From sequence record PP337211: DNA of 64,000 nt; one strand, 5' to 3'. Positions 2,545 to 63,823 of the stretch are shown here, one piece after another. The notes under the pieces were generated by a model. The model worked only from the letters and a program-made list of their open reading frames with translations. It was not told the origin of the DNA and searched no databases. How positions within the stretch are numbered: the stretch's first letter is position 1; every line of letters starts with the position of its first letter. The translations under genes and the position numbers were made by a program. The stretch comes from Escherichia phage ERS-1.

Positions 2545-2582
2545 AAAGAAGTATAGTGGGGGCCTCCGAAGAAGTAAAGCCC
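2545..2582 (-). promoter_or_regulatory. Bipartite conserved motif, copy 1 (sigma70-like -35/-10 on minus strand)
   Basis: Plus strand reads gaaagaagtatag-N-ccgaagaagtaaagcccc. On the minus strand this is TTTACT (2573-2578), an exact 17 nt spacer, then TATACT (2550-2555). Same orientation as flanking minus-strand genes. Confidence 0.5.
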
Positions 2583-2908
2583 CGGAGGTCGATCGGTTGA
2601 CGGGCGGTAGGGGTCGGAGTCCTCGCGCGGCGAAGGCCGGACCGCTCCCGCCTCGCCTTGTCGTGGATTGTTCGCCGTCCGCCTCCGCCGTCGGTCCCGG
2701 TCCCGAAGCTGAAGCCCGGGATCGTCGCGCGGAGGACCGCGAGCCGTTGGGCGAGACGTTCGGGCGATCCCCGTTGCGAACTCATCGCCCGGCGGAGTTC
2801 CCCGGCTGGCCTGAAGGATTGGCGAGGGCGTCCGCGGGACCTGGAGGGCTTGATCGCCGGCGCGGTGGCCCTGTTGTCGTTGATTCGTTTCCTGCGAGTC
2901 GGGACGGG

Positions 2909-3616
2909 TCAGGGCGACGGCCCGGGCCTCCCCGAGGGCTCCGGTGAAGGCCCTGCGGTTGAGGACCCCGGTGAGGGGTCCTGGTAGGTGGCGGCGCAGG
3001 CCCCGCCCTCAGCTTGCCGCGGAGGGCTTCGAGGAGGTTTGGGCGCTTCCGGCTGGTTTTTCGGGTTGCCGATCCGCTGGAGGTCGGTCTGGGCCTGGCC
3101 GCGCACTTCCGCGTGCTCCTCGGCGGTGGCCTTGATCTTCGGCTCCTCGCCTTCCTCCGCGTAGAAGGCCCCGGACTTCGAGCAGGCAGGCCCCGGTCGC
3201 GCGGTCGATTGTTGTGACGACGTGGACCGTCTCGATGCCGTAGCCGTTCCTGGCGTCCCGGTGAAGGTGTAGCGGTGGCGGCGGTTGCGTCTGAAGGCGG
3301 CGTGCGCTTCTTCGGCTCGCCCGCTGTTGGGCTTCGGCTTCGGCGGGCGAGTGCGGGACCCGGCGGGCGACCTCCTGGGCGGCTGCGTTTCCCCTTCCTC
3401 GAAGTCCGGGAGGGGCGTCGATGCCCGCTGCCGATGCAGCCCGCGGGGCCTCGTGGAACTCCTTGCCCGCGTAGGGTCCGAAGGCGAACTTGCCGCCCGA
3501 TGGCTGGCGCTTCTCCTCCTCCTCCGCGGCCCGTTCCGCGGCCCTGCGGTCCTCGCGTCTTCCGCTCGCGCTCCCGGCGCTCGGCTCGCGGCGTCGGCGC
3601 GGTGAATCGCGTTCAT
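2909..3616 (-). CDS. Hypothetical protein (frameshifted)
   Basis: ATG at 3616 preceded by GGGGAGG; protein-like segments (AFYAEEGEEPKIKATAEEHAEVRGQAQTDLQRIGNPK) in shifting frames. Confidence 0.4.
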   Translation of the reverse strand: MNAIHRADAASRAPGARAEDARTAGPRNGPRRRRRSASHRAASSPSDPTRARSSTRPRGLHRQRASTPLPDFEEGETQPPRRSPAGSRTRPPKPKPNSGRAEEAHAAFRRNRRHRYTFTGTPGTATASRRSTSSQQSTARPGPACSKSGAFYAEEGEEPKIKATAEEHAEVRGQAQTDLQRIGNPKNQPEAPKPPRSPPRQAEGGACAATYQDPSPGSSTAGPSPEPSGRPGPSP

Positions 3617-4227
3617 TTCCTCCCCGGAGGGAGTCGCGGGAGGTCGTGAGCTTCAGGCCCTTGCGCCTGGTGCTTCCCTGGGCCTTCTCGAAGGCTTCGT
3701 CGGGTCCTGGCCTGGCTCTTGACGTGGTAGCTGCGGACCTCGAAGGAGCCCTGAGGCTGCCTTCACCGTTGCGTTGCCCGGGCCGGGACCCGGGACGGCG
3801 TGGGTACGTCTCGCGGAGGGTGAAGAAGCTGTGCTCCCCCGACTCCGATGAAGGGTGGGGACGAAGGTGGAGGGGTTCTGGGTGCGGTTGTCGATGTGGT
3901 AGGCGGTCGAGCTCCTTTCTTGGGTGGGGAGGGCCTGAGCCCTCCCGTTCGATTGGCTGGCCGAACTTCCGGGGGCCCCGCGGCCTCCGCGAGGTCCGAA
4001 GCCGATGGCTCCTGTTGCCGTCGGCGCGGAGGACCTTTGTCGACCTGGCGGATCGCGCGATCGCCGGTGAAGGTCCGGGCGGCGCTGGCCTTGGCTTCGC
4101 GGGTGCCGGGAACTTTTGCGCGGCCCCGACTTCGCCCTGGGAGGTGGTGCCCTGTCGACGGTTCGCGGGCGGCGTGGGTCTGGCGGGAGGATGGTTCGAT
4201 CGGTTCTCCGCTTCTCAGGTTGTTAAC

Positions 4228-4273
4228 GTGAAGAAGCAGACCTGCCGCCGTTTGCCCGAAGAAGTAAAGCCCC
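4228..4273 (-). promoter_or_regulatory. Bipartite conserved motif, copy 2 (degenerate distal half)
   Basis: gtgaagaagcag ... cccgaagaagtaaagcccc; proximal 15-mer intact, distal half and spacing altered. Confidence 0.4.
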
Positions 4274-4299
4274 TGGTGGCCTCTTTTTCGACCCGCGAG

Positions 4300-4950: not shown

Positions 4951-4992
4951 GTGAAGAAAGTATAGTGGGGGCCTCCGAAGAAGTAAAGCCCC
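4951..4992 (-). promoter_or_regulatory. Bipartite conserved motif, copy 3
   Basis: gtgaagaaagtatagtgggggcctccgaagaagtaaagcc, nearly identical to copy 1; minus strand TTTACT-17 nt-TATACT. Confidence 0.5.
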
Positions 4993-7900
4993 CCCCGCGC
5001 GGTTCTTTTGATTCGGTGGGCCCGTGGTGGTCCCGAGCTGGCCGGCCCCCTCCCTCCGCTCCTCCGCTCCTTTCGCCCTGTTGGCCCCCGGCTCCCCGGC
5101 GGCATCTTCGCCGCGGCCTCCGCCATCCGGGCGCCTCGCGGTCCGTGTCGTGGAGGATGCGGCCAGTTGCCGAGTCGATTTGCTGCGGGTCCCTTGGGTT
5201 CTCCTTCTGGGTCGCCCCGGAGGACGTTGGGTGCTCGGAGGAGGGATCTGGCGGGGTGGTCTTTCCTGGCCGGCGTGGACGGCTTGCGCGCCTTCCGGCT
5301 TCGACCTGCCCCGCTCCTTCGCCCGTGCGCGGTGCGGGTGTCCCGCGGCGGAGATCCCCGGGATCGGCACGCCCGCCCGGCGATAGTAACCTCGGCAACG
5401 GCGATGTTGGGCTACGGCCCCTGGCCGGGTCGCTTCGCGTCGGGTACCGCCCAACCCTGCGGGCCAGGTCGGTCTGCGCGGAGCGCATTGCCTTCGGCGG
5501 GCGCTTGGGCTGGAGCCGCCCTGGTCCCGCCCGGCAACTGGACCGTGGAGGGTTCCACCCCGCCGCCGGGTAGGCGCCTGGAGGTTGCGTCGCCCTCGAG
5601 GTGTCTGGCTTCGCCGGATCCGGTTCGGCCGTCGAACGGGATCGCCCCGACCTGAATGACCCCGGCGTCGGCCGGTCGCCGCTTCGTTTTCCTGCCGATC
5701 GGCGCTGCCGGTTCGCGTTGTCGTCGTGATCACCTTCCTCCTCTTTGTTTGATCTCGCTTTGAAATCCCGGGGCCTTTGTTGCGGCATCCCGGACCACTC
5801 GCCGCCCTCCGCCTTTTTAGGGGCGGGCCTCCGTCCGGTTGAAGGGGTGAGCGGCGGTGGTCCGCTGGTCCCGGTGTGCGACTCCCAGTCGCGGGAACCG
5901 ATAGGCCCCCGGCGGGGGTTGATGAAGTAGCGTGGGGCGACCGCCTCCGAAGCGGTGCGGAACCGATAGGCCCCTGTGCCCTGCCACTCCCCGCGGCGGG
6001 GTTTCCTCCGGCTCGTCCGCCTCCCGGCGGCGGGCGCTTCGCCTTCCCCTTCTTGACCTTGCGGACGCGGGCCTTGCCGACCGGGCTGTTCGAGAAGGCG
6101 AGGTGGAGGGCGTAGCGCGGTGACCGTCCGCTGGCCGTCGATTGGCTGAGTTCTCCGGCTTTGGGTTCGGAAGAAGTCCGGCTCCTTTGGCTCGCCCGGG
6201 GGGCGGTCGCGTCCGCTCCGGCAACCTGACCATCCTGCAGGGCTGACGCGGCGGCGGGTGAACCTGTGAGCCCAGGGGGGTGAATCTGGATCTTGTGCCC
6301 TGCTGCGCTGGGATCCCTGTGACGTTCTGGAAGGACTGGGCCGTGGTCTGGAAGGACCTTCACCCCCGGGCCGTCTGCCCGTGGAAGGGTGTAGGCCCGG
6401 TGGGCGACTCCGGCCCCAGGTGGTCGCCCGGGAGGTCCGGATGAAGTCCTTTGCCCCGCTTCCCCGTCGTTTGTGGCGGGTTCGGTGGTTTCTCCGGTAG
6501 GGGTTGTTGGTCGAAGCCCGGGGCGGTCCTGTCCCGGGCCCGTGATCGGTCCCGACTCCGGCGGCGGGGCGGCGGGCGTCCGCCTGAACCTGCTCCGCCT
6601 GCCGGCCGCCGCGAACCGGGTTGCCCTTTGGCCTGGCGGGTTGAAACGGAGGTCTTGGCCTCCTGGCGTGGGCGTAGCCGTTCCCTTCTTGGTTTGAAGG
6701 GAACCTCCCGGGATGTACCCGGCCCTCGGTCCCGGTTCTCCTTCAGTTCTGGCCCTCCTCTCGTCGTCCGTTCCTTGCCCGTGCCGCTCCGCTCCTCCCT
6801 GAGGTCGCCGCGAGCCGTCGCCGGTCGGACGCCCGGGCCTTCTGCGCTGTTCCTCACAGCCTCCACCTGCCGACGGAAGGGCGAAGGCGAGAAGGCGGAG
6901 GCCCCCGTGGATCGCCGCGTCGGAAGGTTTGCCGGCGGCCGCTCCGCCTTGGGCTTGTACGTCCCGTGGGGCGCTTGTTCGGGGTCTTGGTTTGGTGCTG
7001 GCCCTCCTTCGGGTGCCGATGAATCTGGTGCCAAGCGGTCCGGGTCGCGCTCCTCGCGGATCGCCTCCCGGTGCCCGCCCTCGATCCGTGCTCCCGTGCC
7101 AAGCCCCTGGCTCGCCCTGGAAGGCGAGCTGGTGCGCTTCCCCGGTCGGCGCCCGCTCCGGGTAGGTGAGCTGGGCGGCAGTCCTTGCCACGTTCTTCCT
7201 GCCCGTGCCCGTCCGTGGAGTTCGCTGAAGTCGCCCGAGGCTTCGACTTGGCAACGGTACGCGGCCCGTCCTCGAAGGCCCCGCGGGCGGTTTGGCGTTG
7301 AATCTCCGCGAAGTGGCGACGGAAGCGGGCCGCGCGGAACTGGAGTTGGTGGGCGACGGACGGGCCGCCGAGGACCTCGTCCGCGGTGTGATGCCCTGCC
7401 CGCTGTCCGTAGTCGCGGACCTCCTCCGGCTTCGCGGAGGGTACGGCGGCGGCGATTGCCTCGAAGGCGACGGCCGGGTAGCCTTGCGCGCTGCCTCCTC
7501 GCCCTTCTTCGGGCGTAGGTTCCGAAGAAGCGATGGCCGGGTTGTTCGTCTTGATCCGTGTTCGTCTCCGTGTCGATCCGGGGTTTGTCGTCGTCCGGCT
7601 TCGGGAGGAGGGCGATGGCGCCCGCTTCGCGGAGTTCCTTCGGTGGAGCGGTCGCGGTCCCGGGATCGCCAGGCCGGTGAGCCAACCGATGAGCCGGCGT
7701 GTCGGTGGCGGCGGGTCGGCTTCCCTGGAGTCTTGGGCAAACACTCCCGGCGCTGGACCCGGTGCACCTGCTCCGAGGCGAGGACGCCCCGGGCGATGAC
7801 CTGAACCCTCCCGTCCGTGAGGGAGGCGTTGCCGGCACTCCTCGGCTGGGTACGGCCGGGCTGCTTCGTCCGTTCGTCCCTGCCGGCCCTCCGTGGAGTT

Positions 7901-9814: not shown

Positions 9815-10560
9815 TTACCCGGCTGCGAAGCCTTCGGCGCGGAGCGGGGGCGAGGAGTCGAAGCTGCGGGCGAGTTCGGAGACGGTCGCCAGGAAGGGCT
9901 TGGACGGCTCCACGCCCTCGAACTCCGCCTTCGCCGAAGGTCGCCTTGGGCGCGGTGACGGCCTTCTTGACGGGGGAGCCGTTGCGACTTGCAGAAGCCC
10001 GCGACGGGACGGCGGCGCTGATGTCCCCTTACCCTTGATGGCCCGATCTTCCCGTGTTCGGCCTTCTTCTGGATGTTGTAGGTGAACTGCGAGGGGTTGT
10101 CCTGCCGGTAGGCTTGTACGCCCTGGCAGACGAAGTGGGACGGGCCGGGATGGATGTGGACGGCCTCGTGGCGCTCCTGGGTCGCTGGCAGGATGATGTC
10201 GGAGCGGAGGCCGGTGTCCCGGCCCCCGCCCGGGACCCGGTTGCGGTTTCGTCCGCGGCGACTTCCGGGACCTCGCTGGCCTCGAGCCTCGCCCCGTTCG
10301 TCCTTCGTGTTGCAGTGGCTCGCGGAAGGCTTGCCCACTTTTCCCTGCTCCGCCGACCTCCGTGGTGAAGCCCGGACGGCGGTTGTTCGCTTCGCTACCG
10401 TTGAAGTCGGTTGACCGGACGTGATCCCGCTTGATGCCGAACTCCGGCTTGCGCTTCCCGGCGTGAATGGTGATGTCGTGGCCCTCGCGGAGGAGGATGG
10501 CGATGGCGCAACTGAGGCCGGTCCCGAAGAAGCCGATGGCCCCGGGGGTTCTCCTTCCAG
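9815..10560 (-). CDS. NAD(P)-binding Rossmann-fold dehydrogenase-like protein
   Basis: N-terminal beta-alpha-beta dinucleotide-binding motif AIGFFGTGLSCAIAILLREGHDITIH with high third-position GC; AAGGAGAA upstream; frame is lost after about 70 codons. Confidence 0.4.
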
Positions 10561-10871: not shown

Positions 10872-10978
10872 TCAACGAATCGCAACGGCTTTGCCTGGTC
10901 CTCGCGCCGACTTCTTGCGGTTTTGCGCCGCGCGGGATCGGGTGCCCGTGTATGCGGCGGAAGGCTTCTTGTAGTTCA
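10872..10978 (-). CDS. Small basic protein
   Basis: GGAAAGGAG, 9 nt, then ATG at 10978; translation MNYKKPSAAYTGTRSRAAQNRKK...; about 65 nt downstream of motif copy 4. Confidence 0.4.
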
Positions 10979-11044
10979 TGATGGGCTGCTCCTTTCCAAT
11001 CTTGAATCGCGGGTGCTGGTCTGGGGTTGGTTGTTTGGACTCGT

Positions 11045-11082
11045 GTGAAGAAGTATAGTGGTTGTCCGAAGAAGTAAAGCGG
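11045..11082 (-). promoter_or_regulatory. Bipartite conserved motif, copy 4, about 65 nt upstream of an RBS and ATG
   Basis: gtgaagaagtatagtggttgtccgaagaagtaaagcgg with a 15 nt spacer; followed on the minus strand by GGAAAGGAG and the ATG at 10978. Confidence 0.5.
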
Positions 11083-11094
11083 TTTGGTGGTTTG

Positions 11095-12990
11095 GCGCGC
11101 GGCGGATTTCCCGCCGGACCTGAAGGCGGGCGTTGAGGGCCGCGCGGTGGTCGGAGGAAGTCCGCGGCACGTGCACCTGGGGCTCCCCCCTCGGTGAAGC
11201 GGACCTTGCAGCGTCCTGGCCTGCTCCTCCGTGTAGGCCATCCCGCCCCCTCGGCTCCCGCTTCGTCGCTTCCGCGTGTCGCTCGGCGGGGGTGCTCCTC
11301 GGGAACGGCGGCTTGTCCGACTTCGGGCTGTCCTTCTGTAGGCTCCTGGGTCGGTCGACCTTGGGCGAATCGAACGGGCTGCCGGGTCTTGTCCCTGTGC
11401 GCCCGGACCTGCTCCGCGGCGGGAGGTGGGCGCAGGCGCGCTCTCGATCGTGCGCCTCGAAGCCGTTCGTTGGTTGGAATTTCCGCCAGTTTCTGCTCCG
11501 ACTGCGGCCTGCTGTCCGGGAAGGCCCGGTGAGCGCTTGCCGAAGCCGGTGCGGCTGGCGTGGAGTTCGGCCTGGTCGCGGAGGTCGTTGGCGTAGTCGT
11601 CCGTGGGTCCTTCACCACCTTGCCGCTCCGCCTGTCCTGGTCGGTCTTGAGGCGGCCCTCCCCTGGCTCCTGGCCTTCCCTTTGGGTTTCCGGTGAGCGC
11701 CGTCACTTCTGGTCCTGCAGGGCGCGGGTCTCGGGGGGACTGGCGAACCTCGAAGGTGCTTGTGCCGGGTGAGGAGGAAGTGGAGGCCTGTGTTGGGCCC
11801 CTGTTGTCCGGTTGTCCTTGATGCGCTTGAAATAGGCGTGGTCCTGCTTGTGGCCCTCGCCCCTTTCGTGACCGAGAACCGGCGCCTTCCGGGCCCCGTA
11901 CCTTCCCGGACCCTTCGTTCGAGGCGAGGACCTGGTGGAGGTGCTTCGGCCGCTTCCCGTCCGCCCTTGCCCTCGATCCCTGGTGTTCGGTCATCAGGGT
12001 CGAACCTGCTTTCGTGCTTCTTGTCTCCGGCGAAGAAAGCCATCACCGAACAGCAGGACTAACCAGATCGCGGAGGTGGGCGTTGAAGGAGCCCACCAGG
12101 CGCTTCGAGTCGCTGACTTGGAGGTAGTGACGCCCAACATCGTGCCCGTGACCTTGGCGAAGAAGGACTTGCCGGTGCCGCGGCGACCGCGGAGGACCAC
12201 GGCCCTCGCCCGGGCCGTCCGGGGTGCTGGACCTCCGCGCCCCTCCCGACAGGTAGCGGCAGTGCTCCGGGTTCCCTGAGCCTGGACGTCGTCGCGGATG
12301 TGGTCGGGAAGGGCGCGCTCTCGCCCGGGAGGGAGTCGCCAACCCGCGCCTGGGTCGTAGGCTTCTTCCACCTCCTGGCCGGGGGTGGTGATGGGCTCGT
12401 GTTGGCGGCGCTGGGCGATCCGTTTGTAGGCTCCCGCGGCCTTCTCGATGGGCTTGCCCTCCTCCAGCGCCCAACCACTTCACCTTGATGTGGCGGTAGC
12501 GGTTGCGGAAGTCCTCGAAGGACTGCTCGCTGATTTGGTCCGCTTCATCGCTGGGTCCCGAACCTCGCTGACGATGCGGCACTTCTTCTGCCGATGTCCG
12601 CGACTGACGGCGTGCTTCTCGTTGAAGCTTGCGCGGCCAGGGTCCACCGCCTCCCCGCGGGCGTTCGATCTGCCGTGGGCGTAGCCTTCCCGTTCGGCTT
12701 GTCTCTGACGCTCGCGGCGATTTCGTCGGAGCCGGTGATCACCGCGAAGACGTTTGGGGACCTCCGCCGCCAGGTTGGTGCCTCCAACCTGGCTTCCCGA
12801 CCGGCAGAGGGGTACTGGTCGGGTCCGTGGGTCCTGCCCGGTGCCCTGCCCTGCGTGGTCGCTGATAGCCTTCCCGCGCCGGCCGGGCTCCGGCTCCTCC
12901 GTCCCGATGTCCGGGACGTTGCCCGTGATCTTGCCTTTGCACGGCCCCCCGGCCTGGCCCTGCTCCGCCTTTGGACTCGAACCGCGGGGG
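11095..12990 (-). CDS. SF3/P4-D5-type helicase-like P-loop NTPase (left copy)
   Basis: Walker A GTGKSFFAKV and Walker B LVLLFGDGF in ORF 11994..12371; collinear with the right-arm copy, which also shows a sensor-like ASNEDW...RR segment. Start codon apparently degraded (CAAAGG where the right copy has CAGATGG). Confidence 0.4.
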
Positions 12991-13022
12991 CGAATTGTTC
13001 GATGGGGCAGCTGGCCTCGTCG

Positions 13023-13611
13023 CTACGAGACGGCGAGGGTCGGCTGGCGACCCTTCTTGACCTTCTTCGCGGTGGGCGTCGATCGTGCCCGGGAGGCGGG
13101 CGATGCGAGCTCCGTTGTGGCGGTCCGCCTGAAGCACCTTCTCCGGCTGGATGTTGTACGCTTCCGCTCTGAGCCTTCGCCGCCGATCCGGCGATGTCCG
13201 CTTGTCGGACGGGTTTGGCTGCCAAGCCCTGCATAGCCCCCGCCCGAGTCGATGATGACCGTGGGCTTGGCGTGTAGGACTGGAGGCTTCGGCGCCGCGC
13301 CCGCTCCTCCTCGAAAGCCTCCCCGGCTCGCGGTCGATGTCCCGTGAAGCCTGGCGAGGCGGGCCAGTTGTCCTCCTTCGAGGCTTTCACGTTTGATTCG
13401 CCGGCGGACCGGGTTGGCGTGGAAGGCGTTGCGCTTGCCCTGATGCCCTTCGATCGCTCTGCGGCCTTCTGCCTGTGGTTGGGCGGAATGCCACCGTCTC
13501 CGTTTTCCCGTCCGGGATGATGGCCGTTGGGTACCACGGCCTCCCGGTCCCTTTCCTCCTTCAAGAAGTCGATCGCGTCCTTGGTCTTGTGTTTTGGTGT
13601 TTTCTGCCCAT
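13023..13611 (-). CDS. Hypothetical protein, gene X (about 196 aa)
   Basis: ATG at 13611 preceded by GGGGGA; ends ...AKKVKKGRQPTLAVS at 13023; right-arm paralogue at 61277..61868 has the same start context and C-terminus. Confidence 0.45.
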
Positions 13612-14428
13612 TTGATCCCCCGGCTGAAGGATATTCCCGAAGGCGCTGGCCGCGCTTTCCCCCGTCCTCCTTTGGATGACCGGAGGCGTGTGCCGGAGGC
13701 GGCGGCGATTTCGCGCTGGCGTTTTGCCCGCCCGGCGGCGGATGGGAACCGGCGTGGGCTTCGGCTCGTCCGAGGTGCTGGCGCGGTCTGATCGTCCGGC
13801 GGCGGTCCGCTTCCCGTCGCAGCGGTCCGGGCGCCTGTCCTTCGCGGCTTCGATCGGTTGAGGCCCTTGCGGCGGCGGTGTAGGCTTTCGCCTTGGTTGG
13901 TGCGGCAGGCCGGGCAGGACTCCTTGGTTCTTGGAAGGCGTGTCCGCTTGTGCGGCCCCTGCCCGTTGTCGTTCCCGCGAACCTGGCCCTGGTGCCGGCT
14001 ACCGTCCTTCCAAATAGACGCCGTCTCGTTCCCCCGACCTTCGGCGAGGAAGGCCCGGCCCCCGGCCTTGCGGCGACGGGCAGCGTGTCCTCGCTGGCGG
14101 TGAAGTGGTCCGCTCAAGCGGTCCGCCCCTGGGCGGCCTGTGTTGGTGAATTTCAATTTGGTTGCTGGTTGTAGTTCACGTCCGGGTCCCGGCAATGGGC
14201 TTCTCCTCGCCGGTCCGGTTGGCGACCGGATGACGGGGCGGAGGGAGTCCGCGTTGCGGCTTTGCTGGTTGCCCTCCTTCCACGTCGTAACGGCGGGCGA
14301 CTTCCGGCCTTTGACGCGCCGATTCCCTTCCTGCCCCCTCCCCCGGATCGCGGCCCGAGTAGTCGATGCCCGGGAAGGCGACCCGCTTCGCCTGCCTTCC
14401 CCGCGGCCTCCAGGCTGTTGGACCTGGG

Positions 14429-14451
14429 GAAGAAGTATAGAGCGTGAAGCC
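14429..14451 (-). promoter_or_regulatory. Conserved motif half-site (TATACT-type), copy 5
   Basis: gaagaagtatagagcgtgaagcc; shares the CTTCACGC-TATACT arrangement with the copy at 57884. Confidence 0.35.
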
Positions 14452-15094
14452 GTTGTGAGCCGCAAAAAGTTGAGCGCGATTTGACCTCTGCGCAGGCTAC
14501 GTGCCGGCAATTCGTACCGCGGTCCGGGTGCAGGGCTCGGCGAGTTGTTCGTGCCCGGGCGGAAGCCGTTGAACCCGGTCGAAGCCCGCTGTCGTTGGGC
14601 CTGGAACCGTGACGGCTCCGACCTTCGTGGAGGGTCCTTGTCCTGCCCGCGACGTGTTGGGCCTGCCGAGGCGGCGGTCCCTGGTGGTTGCGGTCCTGCG
14701 ACGTTCCCGAGGAAATAACCGCTGGAGCCGTCAAGGACTCTGCCCCTTCTCGCGGCCTAGGGCCTGGCGATACCGTTGCTGCCCGCAAACTTTGGCAGGA
14801 CGGTGCCGTGATGTCGCTGCGCGGCCCTCGATCCTTCCGGTGACGGTCGGGGGTTGCCCGCGCGGCCCTTCTTCTCGACCGCGCGGACCTGGTCCGGTTC
14901 CCCCCTCACCCGCTGTGGTCGATGAGGTATGCCTTGTCTGTCTCGCGCTCGATGACCCTTCCGAGGTCCGGTGTTGTCGTTGCTGCGGCGGTGTTGTTCT
15001 CTGGGGGTTCGCCCCGGACTTCCTCCGGGCGGCGGCCCTTTGCGCGTGTGTTGGTGGGTGAGCAAGTGACCTGCGCGTCTGTTGATAGGGACTT

Positions 15095-17611
15095 TCACGG
15101 CGGAATTCCCTGTCCTGCCCGGAAATACCCTGCTCTGCCAAATTTTGCCGCTGCCTTTGACGGGAGTTCCAGCGGCGTGCGCCTCACGTGGGCGGCTTCC
15201 GCGGCCTCCTTCGTCGTGTACGCTGAAGGCGATCTCGTCGTGGACCTGGATGATGATGTCCGTCTGGCTTCCTGTGCCTCTACGCCGTCCTTGGTCTGGT
15301 CTCGCGGAGGAGCCCTGAATCTGCGGTTGGTCCCTTGTGGTTCTTGCCCGTTCTCCCGTCCTCGTCCTTCGGGAAGTGGTGCGGCGACCGCTCGGTGTCG
15401 TGACGTAGCCGGCGGCCTTCGCCCGGGCTTCGGCCTTTGCCGCTTCTCGATGCAAACGGCCTTGTGGTCGAAGGTGTCCGGGAGGGCCTGACCCTCCGGC
15501 CCCGCGGCCTCGAACCTCCGCGCCCCTTCCGCGACCTGGCGCTGACCCTCCGGGCTGTTCGTGAACGGCCGGAAGCGGGGGCGTGCGGGCGGCCATCGGT
15601 CGGGAGCCCGAGCTTGCGCTCCTCCCCTCGCCCGCCTGTCCCGGTAGGACCTGCCGGTAGATTTCCTTGGCGTCCTTGCGCTTGATCCCCGCCTGTCCGC
15701 CATCATCCGGTGGTTGTCGGTGTTCGGGTCGTTGCGGACTGTCCCGGGCTTCGATTGTGGACCTGCCCTGCTGGTGCCCGTTTGGTCTTTGCCGGGTGGC
15801 GTAGTGGACCGCCTTGCGCGGCTCCTGCTGGCTGTAGTCGTTGGACGCCCTGTGTTGGCCTTCCTCCGGGAGGTAGATGGCCCGCCGCGGCGGCGAACTC
15901 TTCCCCAGCCGGTCGCTGCTGGAGGTTCGGGTGTTCGCTGGACTGTCGCCCGTAGGCAGGCGCCGCGGTCCCGTCGCTTTCGTCTCTTCCCTTCCGGCGG
16001 CGGAGCTGGTCGAACGTCCCGTGGAGGCGCCGTTCGCCATGTGGTCCGGGACGGACTGGCGAAGGTCGTGCGCCTTGTTTGCCTTCCGGCGCGTTCGAGG
16101 AGGCTCTGCCTCGGGTGGCTGATTGAGCCCTGGCTCCTTGTCGATGTTGGGCTTGCCCTGGGAGGTTGTTCGGCTTGATGCCGATGTGTTCGAGGGCGGG
16201 GGCGATCACCTCTGGCTTCCCGGTACGCTGCGGTGATCCGGTGGCCGGTGATCGACCGGACTTGGGCGTGGGCCTCCGTCTCCTTCTCCGCGCCGGGCTG
16301 GTCGGTTGTCCTGGCGGTCGCGTCGATTGCACGCCCCGGCGGCGAAGGCCCGTGAGGATCGGGGCAGGCCGGACTCCCTGGTGCAGGTTGCCCCGGGTCC
16401 TGCCGGACCTCCCGCTCCTGACGGCGGAGGATGTTGGGTGCGCGTGTCCTCCTCCGCGCACTTCCCGAGGCCTTGGCCGGAGGTCCCGGTTGCCCTTCTT
16501 CGGGCAATCCTGTACCACCGCGGCGGCGCGTGCTTCGTCCTTGCCGTGGAAGCCCCACCGCTCCGCGATAGCTTGCATGCTGTAGCCGTCGTGGAGTTTG
16601 GCAGTTGCGGGTCTGCGATCTGGATGTCACGGAAGTAGCGGACCCGCTCCAACTCGAGTGCCGTCCCCGGCGAGGAAGTCCGTTGGTGCCAGGTTGGCCT
16701 CCCAGGTCGCCGGTGAGCACCTTTGCCGGGCGCGGAGGTAGGCCGGTACGCCCTCCGGCCGGTAGGTTGCCCCCGCCTTCGCGTCCGATGGGGAGTACCC
16801 GCCCGGGCCGTCCTCGATTGCGAAGCTGATGCCGGTGATGTAGCTGTTCGGCGACGGCCCGCCCCGGCCCCGAGCTCTCGAGGTCCGGTCCCCGCGTTCC
16901 TGCCGATGGCGACCCGCTCGGCCCTCCCACCAGGGAGGGTGCTGAGGTCCGGGGCCTCCCTGTCGCTGGAGACGGTCGTGAACAGGGTGGTTGGAGGTAT
17001 GAGGCTTGGCTCCCACCTCCGCAATCATCTTGCGCGAGGTTCAGGTGCCGCGGTCTGGCTCCGGGTCGGACTCCCGGAAGGTGAGGATGTGGACCGCTTC
17101 GGCTCCGTCCTCCGTCCTGCCCGTTCGCGGCGGCGAAGGCGTCCGGCATGACGACGGGGCGGAGCGGGGCGAGGACCCCGTTGCGGGCGCCGGACCCTCT
17201 CCCGTAGTGGATCGCCTTCTCGGAGGTCCTGGCGCGGGTCCTCGTGCTCTTGCGGTTGCGGGTCGCGCACTGGTCGCGCGGCCTTCGGTGTAGCGGAGGC
17301 CGTTGGTTCCTCCCAGCTCCTGTGTTGGACGGGCGAGCGGCAGCGCTCATCCGTCCTTGCTTTTCGTTTTGTCCTAACTCTCTTCCTTTGGTTTTGCAGC
17401 CGGAGCGTCTGCTGGCGGTAGTAATACCGGGAACCCCGCCTCCCCGTCGGTGTTGTATGGACCTTGCGGAGGTGCGCGAGTTCTTCCGTGTCGAAGGCGT
17501 AGAACTTCTGCTGCGGGCTCCTGCCGGTTGCTGGCCTCTCCAGTTGTTCGCGCACCACCTCCTCGAGAAGTCCGAGAGACGGCGATGCGGCTGGCGCTTC
17601 GCTGCCCGCAA
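15095..17611 (-). CDS. Family A DNA polymerase with 3'-5' exonuclease domain
   Basis: Minus-strand motifs in correct order: Exo I FYAFDTEE (about 17480-17505), PNLQ box GRQSSEHPNLQQ, motif A DYSQQEPR (15801-15818), GYVTT...GRR, motif C IIIQVHDEIAF (15225-15248), stop about 45 codons later. Frames break repeatedly; N-terminus may extend to the ATG at 18084. Confidence 0.6.
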   Translation of the reverse strand: MRAAKRQPHRRLSDFSRRWCANNWRGQQPAGARSRSSTPSTRKNSRTSARSIQHRRGGGVPGITTASRRSGCKTKGRELGQNEKQGRMSAAARPSNTGAGRNQRPPLHRRPRDQCATRNRKSTRTRARTSEKAIHYGRGSGARNGVLAPLRPVVMPDAFAAANGQDGGRSRSGPHPHLPGVRPGARPRHLNLAQDDCGGGSQASYLQPPCSRPSPATGRPRTSAPSLVGGPSGSPSAGTRGPDLESSGPGRAVAEQLHHRHQLRNRGRPGRVLPIGREGGGNLPAGGRTGLPPRPAKVLTGDLGGQPGTNGLPRRGRHSSWSGSATSVTSRSQTRNCQTPRRLQHASYRGAVGLPRQGRSTRRRGGTGLPEEGQPGPPAKASGSARRRTRAPNILRRQEREVRQDPGQPAPGSPACPDPHGPSPPGRAIDATARTTDQPGAEKETEAHAQVRSITGHRITAAYREARGDRPRPRTHRHQAEQPPRASPTSTRSQGSISHPRQSLLERAGRQTRRTTFASPSRTTWRTAPPRDVRPAPPPEGKRRKRRDRGACLRATVQRTPEPPAATGWGRVRRRGGPSTSRRKANTGRPTTTASRSRARRSTTPPGKDQTGTSRAGPQSKPGTVRNDPNTDNHRMMADRRGSSARTPRKSTGRSYRDRRARGGAQARAPDRWPPARPRFRPFTNSPEGQRQVAEGARRFEAAGPEGQALPDTFDHKAVCIEKRQRPKPGRRPPATSRHRAVAAPLPEGRGRENGQEPQGTNRRFRAPPRDQTKDGVEAQEARRTSSSRSTTRSPSAYTTKEAAEAAHVRRTPLELPSKAAAKFGRAGYFRAGQGIPP

Positions 17612-21245: not shown

Positions 21246-21556
21246 CTTGGGTTCTCCACCGGTTGAAAACGGCGGAGCCGGAGCCCCGCCTGGTTGCTGT
21301 TGGTTGCGTGATCGGGATGATCTTGCGCTCGCCGCCGTCCTCCTCCGGCGGGTCTGGTTCCACGATCTTCTTGAAGTCGGGCGAGCGGCCTTCGCCGCTC
21401 CGGCTGGTTCCGAACCGGCGGGCTTGCCCTTCGTCCGCTGTCCGCGCGGTGGAGACCTGCCGGTGGGGCGCGTCCCTTGACCTCCTGGAAGGGCTGGCCC
21501 GTCGGTCCGGTGAAGGTTCGGCACGCGCTGGCCGTGGCCGGTCTGCGGTGATCATT

Positions 21557-22688: not shown

Positions 22689-22690
22689 AA

Positions 22691-22729
22691 CTGTGAAAGT
22701 CAGCGCCTTACCCGGAAGAAGTAAAGCGG
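22691..22729 (-). promoter_or_regulatory. Bipartite conserved motif, copy 6 (proximal half intact)
   Basis: ctgtgaaagtcag...ccggaagaagtaaagcgg immediately upstream of the minus-strand gene starting near 22688. Confidence 0.4.
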
Positions 22730-25671: not shown

Positions 25672-25713
25672 CGTGAGAGAATCTTAACCCTGGCCCCCGA
25701 AGAAGTAAAGTGG
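25672..25713 (-). promoter_or_regulatory. Bipartite conserved motif, copy 7
   Basis: cccgaagaagtaaagtgg; minus strand TTTACT, 17 nt, TAAGAT; followed by an AAAAGGAG leader. Confidence 0.4.
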
Positions 25714-25729
25714 TTTGACTAACTTTTTC

Positions 25730-29357: not shown

Positions 29358-29360
29358 GAA

Positions 29361-57901: not shown

Positions 57902-58282
57902 TTGCAGTTAGGCGGGTCGCGCGCGGGGAGAGGTCAGGAGCGTGTGGCGAGGTGCTGTCTCAGGGACAAACCAAATGATGTTTAACCTTAGCAGACCACC
58001 CGGTCCCAAGTAGACTACACATAACCATCGCTAAGGTTAACCTGGTAACCTGCACACAATACTCTCAGCACCTCTATCCGCTTTTTATTTAAAAACTCTT
58101 GGTTTCTTTTAAACGTTTGGCCCGATGATTTTTTGTTGCAAAGAGGTTTCCTTATTTTCTGTTGTTTCTTTTGATTCCCCTTTAACCAGTGAATTTCTAG
58201 GTGCTGGGAACTCTGTGTCCCAACTTACCAGGTTAACCTTAGCAATACGTAACTGAACCAAGTAGATGCTAGCAAGTCAATT

Positions 58283-58510
58283 GCTAAGGTTAACAGACGA
58301 CTACAAACGGAATCTACAGCGTCAATTGCGTAGTGAAGTAAGAAAGTTGAAAAAATCAGTTTACATTGACGATGATTTTGATTACAATACTTCTCAACCA
58401 GTTTAAGTTTAAATTAATCTTTTGAGGTTTGTCGGAACAATTTATATTAAACTGGTTCTTTTTAAACAGGTGCTGTCGATTCCGTTTGTAGTCGTCTGTT
58501 TAACCTTAGC
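58283..58510. repeat. About 38 bp inverted repeat flanking a 151 bp AT-rich spacer
   Basis: Left arm 58283-58320 gctaaggttaacagacgactacaaacggaatctacagc; right arm 58472-58510 is its reverse complement with one indel and one mismatch. Confidence 0.7.
58360..58388 (+). promoter_or_regulatory. Near-consensus sigma70-like promoter facing right
   Basis: TTTACA (58360-58365), 17 nt, TACAAT (58383-58388), inside the IR spacer; downstream AAGGA (58551-58555) and ATG at 58565. Confidence 0.5.
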
Positions 58511-58564
58511 ATATGTCTAATGTCGAAGCCACACACCACCGCCAGAGTTAAAGGATCGACTCCC

Positions 58565-59701
58565 ATGGAACACCAGCACCTTCGGCATCAAGCTGAGCAA
58601 GATCTTCCCGTGGCTGGTTCAGGAAGGAGCTGCCGGGATCAATCGACTTCCCGTGGCGGACCTCCTCAACGCGCCCGGAAGGTGAACAGGCCTGCGCATG
58701 ACCTTCGCCCAGCTCCGTCCAGGATGACCTGGCGGTGAACGGTCGCCTTGGCGGGACGTTCAACCTGCTTCGCCGCCGGAAGGATGACGAAAGCGACGGG
58801 ACCGCGGGCGCCGCCGCACGGGCGACTGTCCGTGAATGCCCGAACCTCCCTGGCCGGCTCGGCATGAGTTCGCCCTTCACGTGGTGGGGCCTTCCACCTC
58901 CCGGAGGAAGGCCGGGCGTCTGGGCGTCCGGACGATGTCACCTGCCTGGAGCTGCGGCGGCGGCTCGTCACGCCTGCTCGGCGAAGGACCTGATTGGTGG
59001 GGCCTGGCTGTCTGGGTTGAAGCCCGGGACAGGTACTGTACGAACACCGAGCATCCGAGGACCCTCCGGTGATGGTGGACATGGCGGGGATCAAGCGCAA
59101 GGACGCCAAAGGAAACTACCTGGGCCGTCCTACGGGATGGGCGGGGCGAAGATGTGCCTGGGCTCGGGCTCCCGACGATGATGGCCGTGCGCGGCCCCCG
59201 CTTCCGCTGTTCGACGCGGCACCTGCCCGGAGGGTCGGCGCCTGGTCGCGGAAGGGGCGCGGAGGTTCGAGGCCGCGGGGCCGGAGGGTCAGGCCCTCCT
59301 GGACACCCTCCACCCGGGTGCCCGTTCGCATCGGAGAAGCTGGCGAAGGCTTGCGAAGCCCGGGCGAAGGCCGTGGGCGGCGTCACATGACCTGAGCGGT
59401 CGCCGCTGCCGCTTCCCGAAGGAGGGGACGGGAACTACGACTGGGACCCGGCGACCAACCGGCTGATCGGGCTCCTCCCGCGGACCGGGTCAAGATGGCG
59501 ATGGTGGCCTGCGCGGAAGCCGGACTGGGGCGTCCCGGGGCCGGCGATGAGATCGCCTTCGGCTAGGCGAGGCGGAGGAGGCCGCGGAAGCTGCCTGGTT
59601 GCGGACGTGTACGCCGCCCCAACTCCCGTCAAGGTGGACGTGGAGATTGGGCAGGCTGGGGTCATCGCTTGGGCTGGACGGGAGCCGCCTTTGCGGTTCC
59701 G
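58565..59701 (+). CDS. 5'-truncated family A DNA polymerase paralogue (polymerase domain only; possibly a pseudogene)
   Basis: Collinear inverted homologue of minus-strand 16230-15095: PNL box TVRECPNLP, motif A-like D.VTCLELR, SAKDLIGG, FEAAGPEGQAL, EKLAKACEARAKAVGGVT, motif C-like GDEIAF, C-terminus VKVDVEIGQAG...RFRYG, TGA at 59699-59701. Contains a 50 bp stretch identical to the reverse complement of 15481-15530. No exonuclease region. Confidence 0.5.
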
Positions 59702-59799
59702 CTACGGGTGACGTGGGTGTCGGCTCACTCGTTTGCGGATCGCTGCGGGTGTACCCGCTCGACCCCGCAGGAAGTCCGGGCGAACCCCTGGAGAACGAT

Positions 59800-60100
59800 A
59801 TGCGCCGTGGCAACGACAGCGTCCGTGGACCTCGAAGTGTTGGCGAGCGTGAGAAAGGGGGCCCTGGTCGACGGCGGCGGTGAGGAGGAAGTCTGGATGC
59901 CGGGTTGGTGTCCGCGCGGTCGAGAAGAAGGGCCTGCGGCCACCTGGACCGTCACCGAATGGATCGCCGGGTCAGAAGGGGCTGATATGAATGATCGCTG
60001 TGCGCTGGGAAGTTCTGGGCGGCGATGATCTGGGAGGCGGTCCTGGTCTGGCTCCTGGTAGGCGGTTGCCGGTGGACGCCTTCGAGTCCTTGACCTGGCC
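59800..60100 (+). CDS. Small hypothetical protein (paralogue of the gene downstream of the left polymerase)
   Basis: GGAGAA, 4 nt, ATG at 59800; homologous left copy reads VIERETDKAYLIDHSG but has ACC in place of the ATG. Confidence 0.3.
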
Positions 60101-60159
60101 TCCTGCTGGGCGGCACTTCCTCGGAACGTTGCCCGGTTTCCGCTGAAGGAGGAGGTGAA

Positions 60160-60378
60160 ATGAGCGAACGTCAAGACCGCCTGGGACCGCCGCGATGTTG
60201 GGCTGGCCGGTCGTCGCGGGCTGGAAGGGGTGATCAAGGTCGGAGCCGTCCTGGTCGGCCGGGCGGTGGCGCGGCTTCGACCGGGTTCAACGGCTTCCCG
60301 CCCGGTGCGATGACTCGCCGGAGCTGTACGCTGACCGCGGTGTACCTGCCGTCGGTGGCGGAGGCGTTGGCTCTTTAG
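60160..60378 (+). CDS. Small hypothetical protein
   Basis: Strong RBS AAGGAGGAGG, 5 nt, ATG at 60160; MSERQDRLGPP...; ORF as given in the track. Confidence 0.4.
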   Translation: MSERQDRLGPPRCWAGRSSRAGRGDQGRSRPGRPGGGAASTGFNGFPPGAMTRRSCTLTAVYLPSVAEALAL

Positions 60379-60387
60379 GCTCGCCTG

Positions 60388-60410
60388 CGACGGCTTCGCT
60401 CTACATTCTT
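60388..60410 (+). promoter_or_regulatory. Degenerate plus-orientation paralogue of copy 5 (right arm of the duplication)
   Basis: cggcttcgctctacattctttccc aligns with the minus-strand reading of copy 5 (cggcttcacgctctatacttcttcccc); flanking sequence is collinear. Confidence 0.35.
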
Positions 60411-61276
60411 TCCCTGCTGTCCGAACTGTATGGAGGCCGCGGGGAAGGCGGGCGTGAAGCGGGTCGCCTTCCCGGTCGACTACGGGCTGCGATCCGGGGT
60501 GGGTTGCTGAGTGGAATTCGACGGTTGATGAGGCTTTGGAAGTCGCCCGCCGTTAGGGGTTGAAGCGAGGTGGGTAGATGTCTGAAGCCGGGCGCGGGAC
60601 TCCCTCCGCCCCGTCATCCGGTCGCTGGACCCGGTGCGCGTGGAGAACCCCTTTCGCGCCCGGGACCCCGGATGTGAACTATGCCGGGCTGGATTGAATT
60701 GAAGTTCGCTGAACGCTGGCCGCCCTGGGCGGACCGCTTCCGAGTGGACCGACTCCACCTGCCCAGCACCTGGCTCACCCGTCGCCGGGTGCCGGGGCCG
60801 GGCCTTCCTCCTGCTGAAGGTCGGGAGACGGAGTGGTTGCTGATTCGATGGAGCGGTGGCCGCTGCGACGCCGGGCCGGGTTCCGCGAGAACGCCTGTAT
60901 GAGGTCTGCGCTGCCGTTGGATGCCTTCCAGAAATGAGGAGATTTGTAAATGTCGCCGCGGTGAGGCGGGCGGAAGGTGAAAGCCCACCGCTACACCGCC
61001 GCTGGCAGGGTTGAACCAAATTGAGGCCGCGAAGGAGTACGGGGTCCTTGCACCGCTACCGTGATGGGAAGCGGACCGCCGCCTGGACGATGAACCGTGC
61101 CTGTCCCGGCGAGGTCCGAGCCCGAGGTCTGCTTGCTGTTCCGCCGCCGCTCGGGCAAGACCTGCGCGAAATCGCCGCCGCTCTGGGCTGACTCGCCTCG
61201 GGTTGTCCAGATGGCAGGACGGAAAGCGCCGGTTGAGCGCCTTCGTGAATATTGGGGCTTTTGAGGGGGATCGGAA

Positions 61277-61868
61277 ATGGCGGAACTGCCGAAGTGGAGA
61301 CGAGGATGGTTGACTTCCTGAAGAAGCGGTGCCGGAGGGGCCGTGGGTCCTGACGGCCATCGTCCGGACGGGAAAACGGAGACGGTACCGTCTTGTTGCC
61401 CACTGCTTAAGGCCGCGGAGTGGATCGAGGGCATCAGGGCAAGCGGGCCCCGGATACTTCCTCGCCAACCCGGCTCCGCCGGGCGATGGACGTGAAAGCC
61501 TCGAAGGAGGGATGGCCCGCCTCGCCTGGCTTCGCGTCCACCCCGCGAGCCGGGAGGACTTCGAGGAGGAGCGGGCGCGGGCGCTCAGCTGCTCCGGTCT
61601 GACCGCCGGAGCCGGCGGTCATCGTTGACTCGGGCGGGGGCTATCCGGGCTTTTGGCGTCGAACCCGTCCGAGGCCTGGAGATTGCTGGATCGGCGGCGA
61701 AGGCTGGAGCTGGAAGCGTAGGTGTTCGGCTGGAGAAGGTGTTTCAGGCGGACCAGTTGCCGGCCACGTGGACCGCATCATGCGCCTCCCGGGCGATCAA
61801 CATGCCCCGCGAAGAAGGTGGAGAAGGGTCGCCTGCCGACCCTCGCCCGTCTGCGTGGAGTGGAATGA
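61277..61868 (+). CDS. Gene X paralogue (about 197 aa)
   Basis: GAGGGGGA, 5 nt, ATG at 61277; shares blocks (acggccatcgtccggacgggaaaacggagacggt; cgtgaaagcctcgaaggagg; gtcatcgttgactcgggcgggggctat) with minus-strand 13611-13023; C-terminus AKKVEKGRLPTLARLRGVE. Confidence 0.45.
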
Positions 61869-61911
61869 GGCCGCTACCCCATCGAGGTTTACCCCCGCGG
61901 TTCGAGTCCAG

Positions 61912-63783
61912 ATGGCGGAGCAGGGCCTGGCCGGGGGCCGTCCGAAGGTGAGATTGGGGCACGTCCGGAGGTTCGGGGACGGAGGAGCTGCGGAGCGGGC
62001 CCTTTAGGCGCAAGGCCATCCGTTACCCGCGCTGGCGCTGATCGCTACTGGGCAGGGACCCGCCGGACCGACCAAGTACCCCTCCCGGTCGGAAGCCCTG
62101 TTCGGGTGCTCGCTGCGACCTCGTGCGGGCGGAGGTCCCTGATGAACGACTTCGCGGGTGATCGCCGGCTTCGGCGAAATCGCCGCGCAGCCTGTCCGGT
62201 AGGGCCCAACTGGGAAGGCTACGCCTGCGGGGGTTCGAACGTGCCCTTGAGGAGGCGGTGCACCCTCGGCCTGGGCGGACCAGAAAGCTCGCCGTCGGTG
62301 GAGGTTGGCGGAAGTGCCGGGCGGTGAGGTCTGGGACCCGGCGATGAAGCGGTACGGGTCTGGGGGTCCTTCGAGGACTTCCGGCACGCTACCGCCGGAG
62401 GTAGTGGTTGGTCGGAGGAGGGGGTAGCCGTTGAGAAGGCCGCGGGAGCCTTCTGGATCGATCACCCGTGCTGCCCGGCACGAGACGGTTGGTTCGCCCC
62501 CGGCCTGAGGTCGAAGAAGCCTATGCCTCTGGCGCGGGTTCGCGCGCGATCCTCCCGGCGAGAGCTGCGCCCTCCCGGCACCTTCGTGAGGGCGCCGCCG
62601 GGGAACCCGGCTACCACGGTCACCTGGTCGGGTGGATGGCGCGGATGGTCCCGTTGCACGGCCCGGCGAGTGGCCGTGGTCCTCCGCGGTCGCCGCGGGC
62701 CGGGTTCTCTTCCTTCGCCGGTAGTCCTGGCGCGATGTTCGGGGGCGTCACGACTTCCGGCTTGCGACGAGCTGGTGGGCTCCTCAAACGCTTACCTTTG
62801 CATACCGTCCTGCTGTTCGGTGATGAGGCTTTCTTCGCCGGGAGGAGGCGAAAGCGTGCCGAGACCTCGCGACCGAAGAACGCCTGGTGATCGAGGGTAA
62901 GGGCGTGGACGCGGAAGCGGCCCCAACCATGTCCCTGGTCCTCGCCTCGAACGAAGATTGGGCGGTGCCCGCGGGTCTGGATGAACGCCGGTCTTCGTTG
63001 GTGGAGGTGGCGAGGGCCCGGTGACCCCGCCTGATTTCAGCGGTTGGGTGATGATCTGGAGGGCGCAGGACGCAGCCCGCCCCAGCCTTTCTCCCACCTA
63101 TGACCTGAGCGCCTTCGAGGTTCGCCAGTTAACCGGGCGCTGCAGGACCAGAAGATCATGAGCATGTCGCCGGAAACCTGTGGATGTATGAGAAGCTGTG
63201 GGAGGGCCGGTCGCTCAAAGACCGACCAGGACTGGCGAAGCAAGGTGGTGAAGGACAGCTGCTGCCGCATGACGACGACGCAACGACCTCCGCGACCAGG
63301 GCCGGAACTTCCGCATGAGCCGCACCCGGCTTCGGCGGCTGGCTGCCCGGGCCTTCCCGGACGGCTGGCCGCGAAGTGAAATGGCGGAGATCGCTTGGAC
63401 GGGTCAAGGTTGGCTTCGAGGTGATGATCGAAGAAGCGCGTGGCCACCACCCGCCGCCGGAGGTGTCCGGCGCCTGGGAGAACTTTGGCGGCCCGTTCGA
63501 GTGGCCCGGGGTCCAACCTACCAGGAGCCTCTGAGGACGGCCCGAAGTCGGAGGCCGTCCCTTCCCAGGATGCCCCCATGAGTGAGCACGCTGTAAGCGA
63601 CGAAGCGGGAGCTGGAGGGGGCGGGGATCGCCTACACGGTGGAGCTGGCCGGAGAGGTCAGGAGGCCGCTTCGCCGTGAGGGGGAAAGCCCCGATGGTGA
63701 CGTGCTCGCGGACTTCCTCCACGTCGCGTGGCCCTCGGTCGCTCGCCTTCGCGTCTGGTGGAAGACCGCCGCGCGCTGGAATT
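61912..63783 (+). CDS. SF3/P4-D5-type helicase-like P-loop NTPase (right copy)
   Basis: ATG at 61912; Walker A region VVLRGRRGPG(K)SF..., Walker B TVLLFGDEAFFAG (62810-62836), sensor-like LVLASNEDWAVPAGLDERR (about 62940-63000); several frame breaks; ends just before the plus-oriented motif at 63794. Confidence 0.45.
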
Positions 63784-63793
63784 GACCTGAACC

Positions 63794-63823
63794 GCTTTAC
63801 TTCTTCGGACTCTATCACTTCTT
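63794..63823 (+). promoter_or_regulatory. Bipartite conserved motif in plus orientation (right-arm counterpart of copy 4)
   Basis: gctttacttcttcggactctatcacttctt on the plus strand, followed by GGAAAGGAG as at copy 4; spacer is shortened. Confidence 0.45.

Follow-up and report, generated by a model that had tools for sequence, protein, structure and literature searches.

What is the two-part motif that recurs upstream of genes along a stretch of phage DNA, and which enzyme reads it? The question is raised by the window, by which we mean the whole stretch of 64,000 nucleotides (nt) analysed from the sequence record of Escherichia phage ERS-1 (PP337211), where a 15-mer, CCGAAGAAGTAAAGC, is repeated together with a related second half. 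An earlier interpretation made from the letters alone (the sequence-only reading) favoured a repeated sigma70-like promoter but did not recognise the sequence. The motif is in fact a rediscovery of a known element of Pseudomonas phage YuA, in GenBank since its annotation in 2008 and with transcript starts mapped in 2024, and both the annotation and the mapped starts support the earlier choice of a promoter placed before genes. The element is very probably a phage-specific promoter of the Yuavirus phages, the YuA/M6 group of siphoviruses infecting Pseudomonas aeruginosa.

On the plus strand of the window CCGAAGAAGTAAAGC is found exactly at 2566, 4256, 4975 and 11066; the sites at 22713 and 25697 each have one mismatch and that at 30950 has two. 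On the minus strand there is an exact match at 63794. Allowing up to two mismatches, there are 10 matches in the window against 0.10 expected, a count equalled by none of 100 shuffles. The dispersed motif proposed earlier is thus real, and the sites named for it were genuine, although the positions given were 0–4 nt off. The second half, GTGAAGAAGTATAG, has its sole exact match at 11045 and one-mismatch copies at 14427 and 30927, the remaining copies carrying variants such as TGAAAGAAGTATAG and GTGAAGAAAGTATAG. Common to both halves is a core, TACTTCTTC, with 39 window matches at one mismatch or fewer where 4.2 are expected. Read on the minus strand, the window copies give GCTTTACTTCTTCGG, some 8–10 nt and then CTATACTTCTTCAC, and the gene-strand form can be written as C-TTTACTTCTTC-GG, a spacer of variable sequence and C-TATACTT. 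TTTACT and TATACT separated by exactly 17 nt had been claimed for three copies, and this arrangement is indeed present without change where the -35 boxes begin at 2578, 4987 and 30962. Against the consensus TTGACA/TATAAT these hexamers score 4/6 and 5/6, and the spacer falls within the 16–18 nt allowed for a promoter of the sigma70 type. The same copies have the layout of the YuA repeat, namely CTTTACTTCTTCGG, a variable spacer and CTATACTT, with TTTACT-N17-TATACT contained within it.

The window matches about 60 Pseudomonas Yuavirus phages (YuA, M6, MP1412, PAE1, Clover and others) at a uniform ~82% identity from end to end, and positions 1–57,578 are collinear with nearly the whole genome of phage Clover (OQ992553). 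All seven copies in this left arm align to identical motifs in Clover, each upstream of a ribosome-binding site and an ATG. Full copies number six in YuA and seven in Clover, every one on the gene strand and with a spacer of exactly 17 nt, and the window copies lie, again on the gene strand, at the sites annotated as repeat_region features in YuA. The distance of 21–23 base pairs (bp) between half-sites inferred from the window was mostly a consequence of read errors, since the clean YuA and Clover genomes have a fixed 23-bp period. The YuA copies precede gp04, gp08, gp12, gp28, gp42 and gp45 and stand 25–70 nt from the start codon of genes for DNA metabolism, hypermodification and host interaction. 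Two of these genes, gp08 and gp12, head the thymidine-hypermodification cluster, to which Pfam assigns an amino-acid:DNA transferase, a pyridoxal-phosphate enzyme, a radical S-adenosylmethionine (SAM) enzyme, Nmad5 and a 5-hydroxymethyl-deoxyuridine (5-hmdU) DNA kinase with a helical partner. The coding sequences downstream of the Clover copies are 11234–11779, 16691–17374, 19443–20885, 32315–32680, 38696–39304, 39428–39691 and 41194–41604, and at the first of them the -35 box overlaps the last six codons of the preceding gene. Copies in annotated relatives are either intergenic or at such terminal codons of the upstream gene, and the interior of conserved coding sequence, the location that the sequence-only reading had regarded as damaging to its case, is free of them.

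Conservation extends beyond the hexamers. Across 46 distinct copies, drawn from YuA, Clover and IMG/VR relatives down to ~76–85% nucleotide identity, CTTTACTTCTTCGG and CTATACTT are kept at 90% or more and the spacer varies freely. The near-invariant bases are C-TTTACT-TCTTCGG and C-TATACT-T(C)TTC, which amount to T(T/A)TACTTC repeated directly with a period of 23 bp; more distant relatives have a spacer of 17 or 18 nt. In a generic scan for sigma70 promoters the YuA copies reach 9/12, with a spacer of 17. Window and YuA elements therefore share CTTTACTTCTTCGG-N-CTATACTT, the 17-nt spacer, the strand and the positions before the homologues of all six YuA genes. They differ in two respects and in nothing else of substance: the window phage and Clover have an extra copy upstream of the gene that follows gp42, and at their gp08 copy the -10 box is TAAGAT.

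It is scarcely conceivable that the motif arose as an artefact of sequencing or base calling. The window does resemble a raw nanopore read, only ~82% identical to the references and with systematic errors, but finished genomes, among them YuA and Clover, and dozens of metagenomic relatives contain the identical motif. It has survived intact in so noisy a read because its gene strand lacks TG, the dinucleotide most affected by error, as described below. A genuine regulatory signal can evidently be recovered from a very noisy read by tool-free reading.

The YuA 'phage promoter' repeat is said to go back to Ceyssens et al. in 2008. The YuA record, NC_010116, labels five copies as 'putative sigma70 promoter requiring phage-encoded cofactor' (7722–7749, 10500–10527, 22639–22666, 29058–29085 and 31098–31125, upstream of gp08, gp12, gp28, gp42 and gp45, respectively). 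Primary 5′ ends in YuA-infected cells have since been mapped, over pooled time points, by ONT-cappable-seq (ONT, Oxford Nanopore), and the starts in Table S3 of that study include P006 at 2914 (gp04), P008 at 7758 (gp08), P010 at 22676 (gp28), P012 at 29094 (gp42) and P013 at 31134 (gp45) (Putzeys et al., 2024; Microlife 5:uqae002; PMC10914365; bioRxiv 10.1101/2023.10.13.562163). Placed on the genome, these five starts lie 7–8 nt past TATACT, in most cases on the A of TTCA, which bears out at homologous sites the prediction that transcripts would begin about 7 nt beyond this box. The same authors found a motif shared by nine YuA promoter regions (MEME E = 2.7e-26) and relate that four copies were silent in the promoter trap of 2008, that is, in uninfected cells (Putzeys et al., 2024). 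In our own text search of the literature, the motif string turned up nothing but unrelated primers.

Having no RNA polymerase of their own (Putzeys et al., 2024), Yuaviruses must rely on the host enzyme. Host polymerase, presumably carrying sigma70, would recognise the -35-like TTTACT and, after 17 nt, the -10 box TATACT, and would start 7–8 nt further on. The conserved bases outside the hexamers, taken together with the silence of the copies in uninfected cells, suggest that a phage-induced factor is additionally needed and would read those bases. Such an arrangement would make the element an activator-assisted promoter, by analogy with the middle promoters of T4 or the cII-dependent promoters of lambda. 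Other YuA promoters, including P014, which was active in the trap, have the same CTATACT -10 box, and this fits a single polymerase working with different solutions at -35. At the gp08 copy in Clover and in the window, TAAGAT replaces TATACT at the same spacing, and there it is therefore the -10 function, and not the repeat, that has been kept. The identity of the putative cofactor would explain how a Pseudomonas phage without a polymerase times its middle genes, including its own DNA-hypermodifying operon.

Several observations weigh against a promoter that depends on a phage factor. The transcript starts were mapped in YuA and not in the window phage, and for the gp12 copy Table S3 of Putzeys et al. 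(2024) gives none. A Pfam scan of 40 YuA early-region proteins within gp01–gp49 (E ≤ 0.01) found no member of the MotA, AsiA or sigma families above cut-off. On paper, TTTACT-17-TATACT should suit sigma70 unaided, and the negative trap result may be explained by short transcripts, running 118–124 nt to the next termination site (mapped at YuA 22800 and 29212), instead of by a missing cofactor. Moreover, three of the six YuA copies, those before gp42, gp45 and gp12, form hairpins of -15.6 to -18.6 kcal/mol (z -3.0 to -3.8) with a U-rich tail behind them. The mapped termination site T013 (29082) lies at the base of the gp42 hairpin and precedes the start P012 by 12 nt, and hairpins of this kind could confound reporter assays.

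A rival reading is that the copies are ordinary host sigma70 promoters that operate without any phage factor, the extra bases tuning their strength and the negative trap being a technical miss. We hold this to be possible, although rather unlikely. The hexamers are close enough to consensus and the 17-nt spacer is optimal, P014 of YuA is a sigma70 promoter that works in the trap with the same -10 box, termination within 118–124 nt could silence a reporter, and no candidate cofactor family emerged from the scanned YuA proteins. Sigma70 contacts, however, do not account for the fact that TCTTCGG behind the -35 box and T(C)TTC behind the -10 box are nearly invariant across the 46 diverged copies, and the four copies that both published studies report as inactive in uninfected cells also speak for a further requirement.

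With regard to a protein that might supply it, only gp25 and gp08 (the latter through a borderline DUF3489 match) look like DNA-binding proteins among the 40 scanned, and gp25 also has a sub-threshold match to Sigma70_r4 (E = 0.0086). The gp25 protein (NC_010116 19624–19950, with a window homologue near 13.9 kilobases (kb)) has 108 amino acids and two tandem helix-turn-helix motifs with an internal repeat, LLLHRRRKNLNQIEAAKEY... and FLLRRRAGKTQREVAAALG..., and is the sole clear DNA-binding candidate of the early region.

These helix-turn-helix motifs bear equally on a different proposal, that the two TACTTCTTC half-sites have no promoter function at all and serve as a direct-repeat operator to which a phage protein binds. 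The T(T/A)TACTTC(TTC) repeats with their fixed 23-bp period would suit such a protein, and lone half-sites do exist at 14,427–14,440 and 33,286–33,300. Transcripts nevertheless start directly after five of the copies, the gp08 copy of Clover and the window exchanges its second half-site for the -10-like TAAGAT at unchanged spacing, and the lone half-sites lie in a deoxycytidine monophosphate (dCMP) deaminase gene and in a terminator hairpin. We judge an operator of this exclusive kind to be very improbable. The sequence-only reading had offered a binding site for a dimeric regulator as its alternative; as a substitute for a promoter this is not needed, although an activator that uses the repeated TACTTCTTC within the promoter is possible.

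The hairpins raise the further question of whether some copies serve to stop transcription. The gp42, gp45 and gp12 copies each form a GC-rich hairpin with the -35 box in its loop, the gp42 copy folding at -18.6 kcal/mol and the gp12 copy at -15.6 kcal/mol (z -3.8), where the hairpin and U-run of YuA resemble an intrinsic terminator. The candidate terminator-promoters span 29044–29094, 31084–31134 and 10486–10537 in NC_010116 and 4951–5000, 2542–2590 and 22690–22740 in the window. The arms of the stems differ among copies yet stay complementary, with a mean stem score of 12.2 against 10.8 ± 0.4 for the null. The hairpins and T013 suggest a second role for these three copies, each apparently closing one transcription unit and opening the following one. 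That the copies as a class are primarily intrinsic terminators, or terminator-promoter modules insulating neighbouring units, is a quite improbable extension of these findings, strong folding, U-rich tails, complementary arms and T013 notwithstanding: none of the gp28, gp08 and gp04 copies forms a significant hairpin, the conserved bases are in the loop and tail and not in the stem, and a generic terminator scan flagged no copy within YuA 20,000–34,000. Termination can only be a role added at a subset of the copies. A single hairpin in fixed register for all copies was ruled out, as the register varies and half of them lack a stem, and Rfam gave no covariance-model match at gathering score in the window or in YuA 1–34,000.

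The promoter reading places the element among known systems as follows. T4 middle promoters combine a MotA box with a sigma70 -10 box and depend on sigma appropriation by AsiA, and lambda cII-dependent promoters have a direct repeat, TTGC-N6-TTGC, straddling the -35 region. With the former the Yuavirus element would share a normal -10 box, a phage-specific box of ~11 nt at -36 to -26 and a proposed phage factor acting on host polymerase; the box sequence is different, however, and no MotA or AsiA homologue occurs in the scanned YuA proteins, so the analogy would be one of mechanism only. Direct-repeat half-sites within an activator-dependent promoter would be the feature in common with lambda, whereas the Yuavirus period is 23 bp and spans both -35 and -10, and no cII-like protein was identified. 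Bacterial sigma70 (RpoD) promoters have comparable hexamers (4/6 and 5/6), the 17-nt spacer and a start 7–8 nt past the -10 box; they differ in that the Yuavirus copies have invariant bases after both hexamers and are reported to be silent in uninfected P. aeruginosa.

A closer likeness in sequence was found outside the genus. An exact scan of IMG/VR with CTTTACTTCTTC-N12-TATACTT returned Yuavirus-like contigs and, in addition, contigs of 152–161 kb with 45–51% G+C that are ViI-like Ackermannviridae; a looser exact scan of IMG/VR added only single, chance-like matches. When TTTACTTCTTC (up to two mismatches), 16–18 nt and TATACT (up to one mismatch) are sought in Salmonella phage maane (MT074480), six sites are found against 0.6 expected, at 27190, 36919, 74296, 88746, 99984 and 153093, all on the gene strand and ~75–95 nt before a gene start. 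The ViI-like box, TTTACTTCTTCAATA...TATACTTC, has about six gene-upstream copies per genome and is kept across the family. It shares with the Yuavirus element C-TTTACTTCTTC, a spacer of 16–17 nt, C-TATACTTC and placement on the gene strand, and both groups have 5-hmdU hypermodification genes; in family, host and GC content the two groups are unrelated, and the ViI-like spacer is AT-rich. The Ackermannviridae records examined have no promoter annotation at this element, and a literature search on ViI-like phage promoters gave nothing relevant and no transcript data. One ViI-like copy lies ~1.1 kb upstream of the 5-hmdU kinase gene.

Conceivably, the extended T(T/A)TACTTC box with its 23-bp period is read in both groups by a common further specificity determinant, which could be a phage-induced protein or the 5-hydroxymethyl-deoxyuridine state of replicating DNA. 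If true, there would be a promoter class linked to hypermodified DNA and extending across phage families, but we think it improbable, and convergence on a strong promoter is the more economical reading of the likeness. Searches with tblastn and phmmer for a regulator common to Yuavirus and Ackermannviridae gave only proteins of nucleotide metabolism and hypermodification and DUF4326. Nor does the promoter class appear to be tied to the 5-hmdU kinase module, the motif being absent within ±10 kb of the kinase in the other phage groups sampled: among 78 kinase homologues it occurs only at Yuavirus-like loci, whose kinase is at least 71% identical, and, as a weak match, at a single Kuttervirus site. 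We also considered whether the promoter avoids TG to escape hypermodification, an idea weakened by the TG in other mapped YuA -35 boxes (TTGACC, TTGTCT, TTGCC).

Taken one by one, the window copies on the minus strand compare with their YuA counterparts as follows. The copy before the gp45 homologue (2542–2580) has its -35 box TTTACT at 2578–2573 and its -10 box TATACT at 2555–2550, with a spacer of 17 and a predicted start at A 2543; it corresponds to Clover 41116 and to YuA repeat_region 31098–31125 with start P013. The downstream gp45 product is an antirestriction protein, annotated in Clover as endonuclease VII. The copy at 4226–4270, before the homologue of Clover coding sequence 39428–39691, has TTTACT at 4268–4263, but its spacer and -10 box are not readable in this read, where Clover shows GGGAGCCCCCACTATACTTTCTTCACG. 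Window positions 4,226–4,262 differ from Clover (GGGCAAACGGCGGCAGGTCTGC against GGGAGCCCCCACTATACTTTC) far more than errors in the TG context would produce, and represent either a local burst of errors or a true difference in this phage. Before the gp42 homologue, the copy at 4951–4989 (-35 at 4987–4982, -10 at 4964–4959, spacer 17, predicted start A 4952) places its -35 box in the loop of the GC-rich hairpin GGGGGC...GCCCCC; its YuA equivalent is the repeat_region at 29058–29085, with P012 and T013.

The copy before the gp28 homologue (11044–11080; -35 at 11078–11073, -10 at 11057–11052) is equivalent to repeat_region 22639–22666 and P010, and appears to have a spacer of 15, the true value being 17, because two bases are missing at a TG site. 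Upstream of the homologue of gp12, the radical-SAM enzyme that is the first gene of the hypermodification operon, the copy at 22690–22727 has its -35 box at 22725–22720 and matches repeat_region 10500–10527; in the clean genomes this copy has the -10 variant TAGACT, followed by TTTTTC. The gp08 homologue is preceded by the copy at 25673–25711 (-35 at 25709–25704, spacer 17), with TAAGAT at 25686–25681 as in Clover, and its YuA counterpart is repeat_region 7722–7749 with P008. Last, the copy at 30926–30964 before the gp04 homologue (-35 at 30962–30957, -10 at 30939–30934, spacer 17; P006 in YuA) overlaps with its -35 box the last six codons of the gp03 homologue, whose C-terminus reads ...LFTSSD.

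The match at 63794 is of another nature. It belongs to the gp28-upstream promoter read a second time on the opposite strand (63794–63832, plus strand), the same genomic site as 11044–11080, with the -10 box garbled at CA sites; the two reads complement each other and in combination give the Clover sequence. This stretch is part of an inverted re-read of the replication genes (primase, polymerase and dCMP deaminase; 58624–63937, plus strand) that is ~75% identical to 10,928–16,139, and there is therefore no divergent right arm of genes. The claim that the motif tracks the direction of transcription, with a copy facing right in keeping with right-arm genes, falls with it, and the orientation of the remaining copies is not independent evidence because all Yuavirus genes are on one strand. 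Wrap-around of a circular genome was ruled out as the source of this copy, given its position in the inverted re-read.

Between the two parts of the window is a technical junction of non-phage sequence (57950–58525). It contains the Oxford Nanopore native-barcode flanks AAGGTTAA and CAGCACCT, and the barcodes and adapter were located by string search with the kit sequences: barcode NB02 occurs exactly at 58,476–58,499 and with one mismatch at 58,293–58,316, NB03 with 4–5 edits at 58,041–58,064 and 58,208–58,232, and adapter sequence at 58,241–58,268. As barcode and adapter sequence joins separate reads, the window is a chimeric, unpolished nanopore read. The junction also holds a fragment of ~100 bp (58,320–58,417), with NB02 on either side, that is 93–97% identical to T4-like phages within a DUF5499 or hypothetical gene and includes a sequence resembling a T4 early promoter, GTTTAC...TACAAT; it looks like a short read of another sample from the same sequencing run. 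A further 44 bp (58,468–58,511) are 100% identical to positions 23–66 of the record for Bacillus phage FI_KG-Lek, which suggests that adapter was left in that deposited record.

The errors in the read are strongly patterned. Relative to Clover, T before G is wrong in 82% of cases on the minus strand of the window, as compared with 10% for T before C and 7% for C overall, and in the inverted right-hand part the errors fall at A preceded by C on the plus strand (71%), which is again TG on the minus strand. Since the errors track the sequenced strand and not the gene strand, the pattern is technical, and the ~82% identity to Yuavirus references is not divergence. The window is 69% G+C with an extreme deficit of A on the plus strand, and long reading frames are absent because TG errors destroy most ATG start codons; gene calling based on G+C at third codon positions (GC3) likewise failed, the frames being broken by these systematic errors. 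T before G accounts for 32–33% of all T in YuA and Clover, a share close to the ~30% of thymidine reported to be replaced by 5-(2-aminoethyl)-deoxyuridine in M6. A preference for a TG/TC context in hypermodification has been proposed from restriction data (Flodman et al., 2019; PMC6449724). The TG-centred errors fit this known thymidine hypermodification and lend the support of a single read to a TpG context. Raw long reads of this kind, with adapter-joined chimeras and base-calling errors driven by modification, can mimic genome architecture and divergence.

The two lone half-sites are no promoters. That at 14,427–14,440 is inside the dCMP deaminase gene, and that at 33,286–33,300, which is antisense and equivalent to YuA 454 on the minus strand, forms an arm of a long hairpin after gp01. 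This hairpin (GCGCTTGGGG...CCCAAGCGC; window 33,256–33,330, YuA 411–471) has termination sites mapped on both strands and acts as a bidirectional terminator. The neighbouring gap between gp01 and gp02 (window 33,085–33,135, YuA ~612–670, minus strand) has consecutive TTC repeats and, after them, TTAAC/TTACT repeats, a stretch that in YuA closely precedes the mapped antisense start P002 (612, minus strand).

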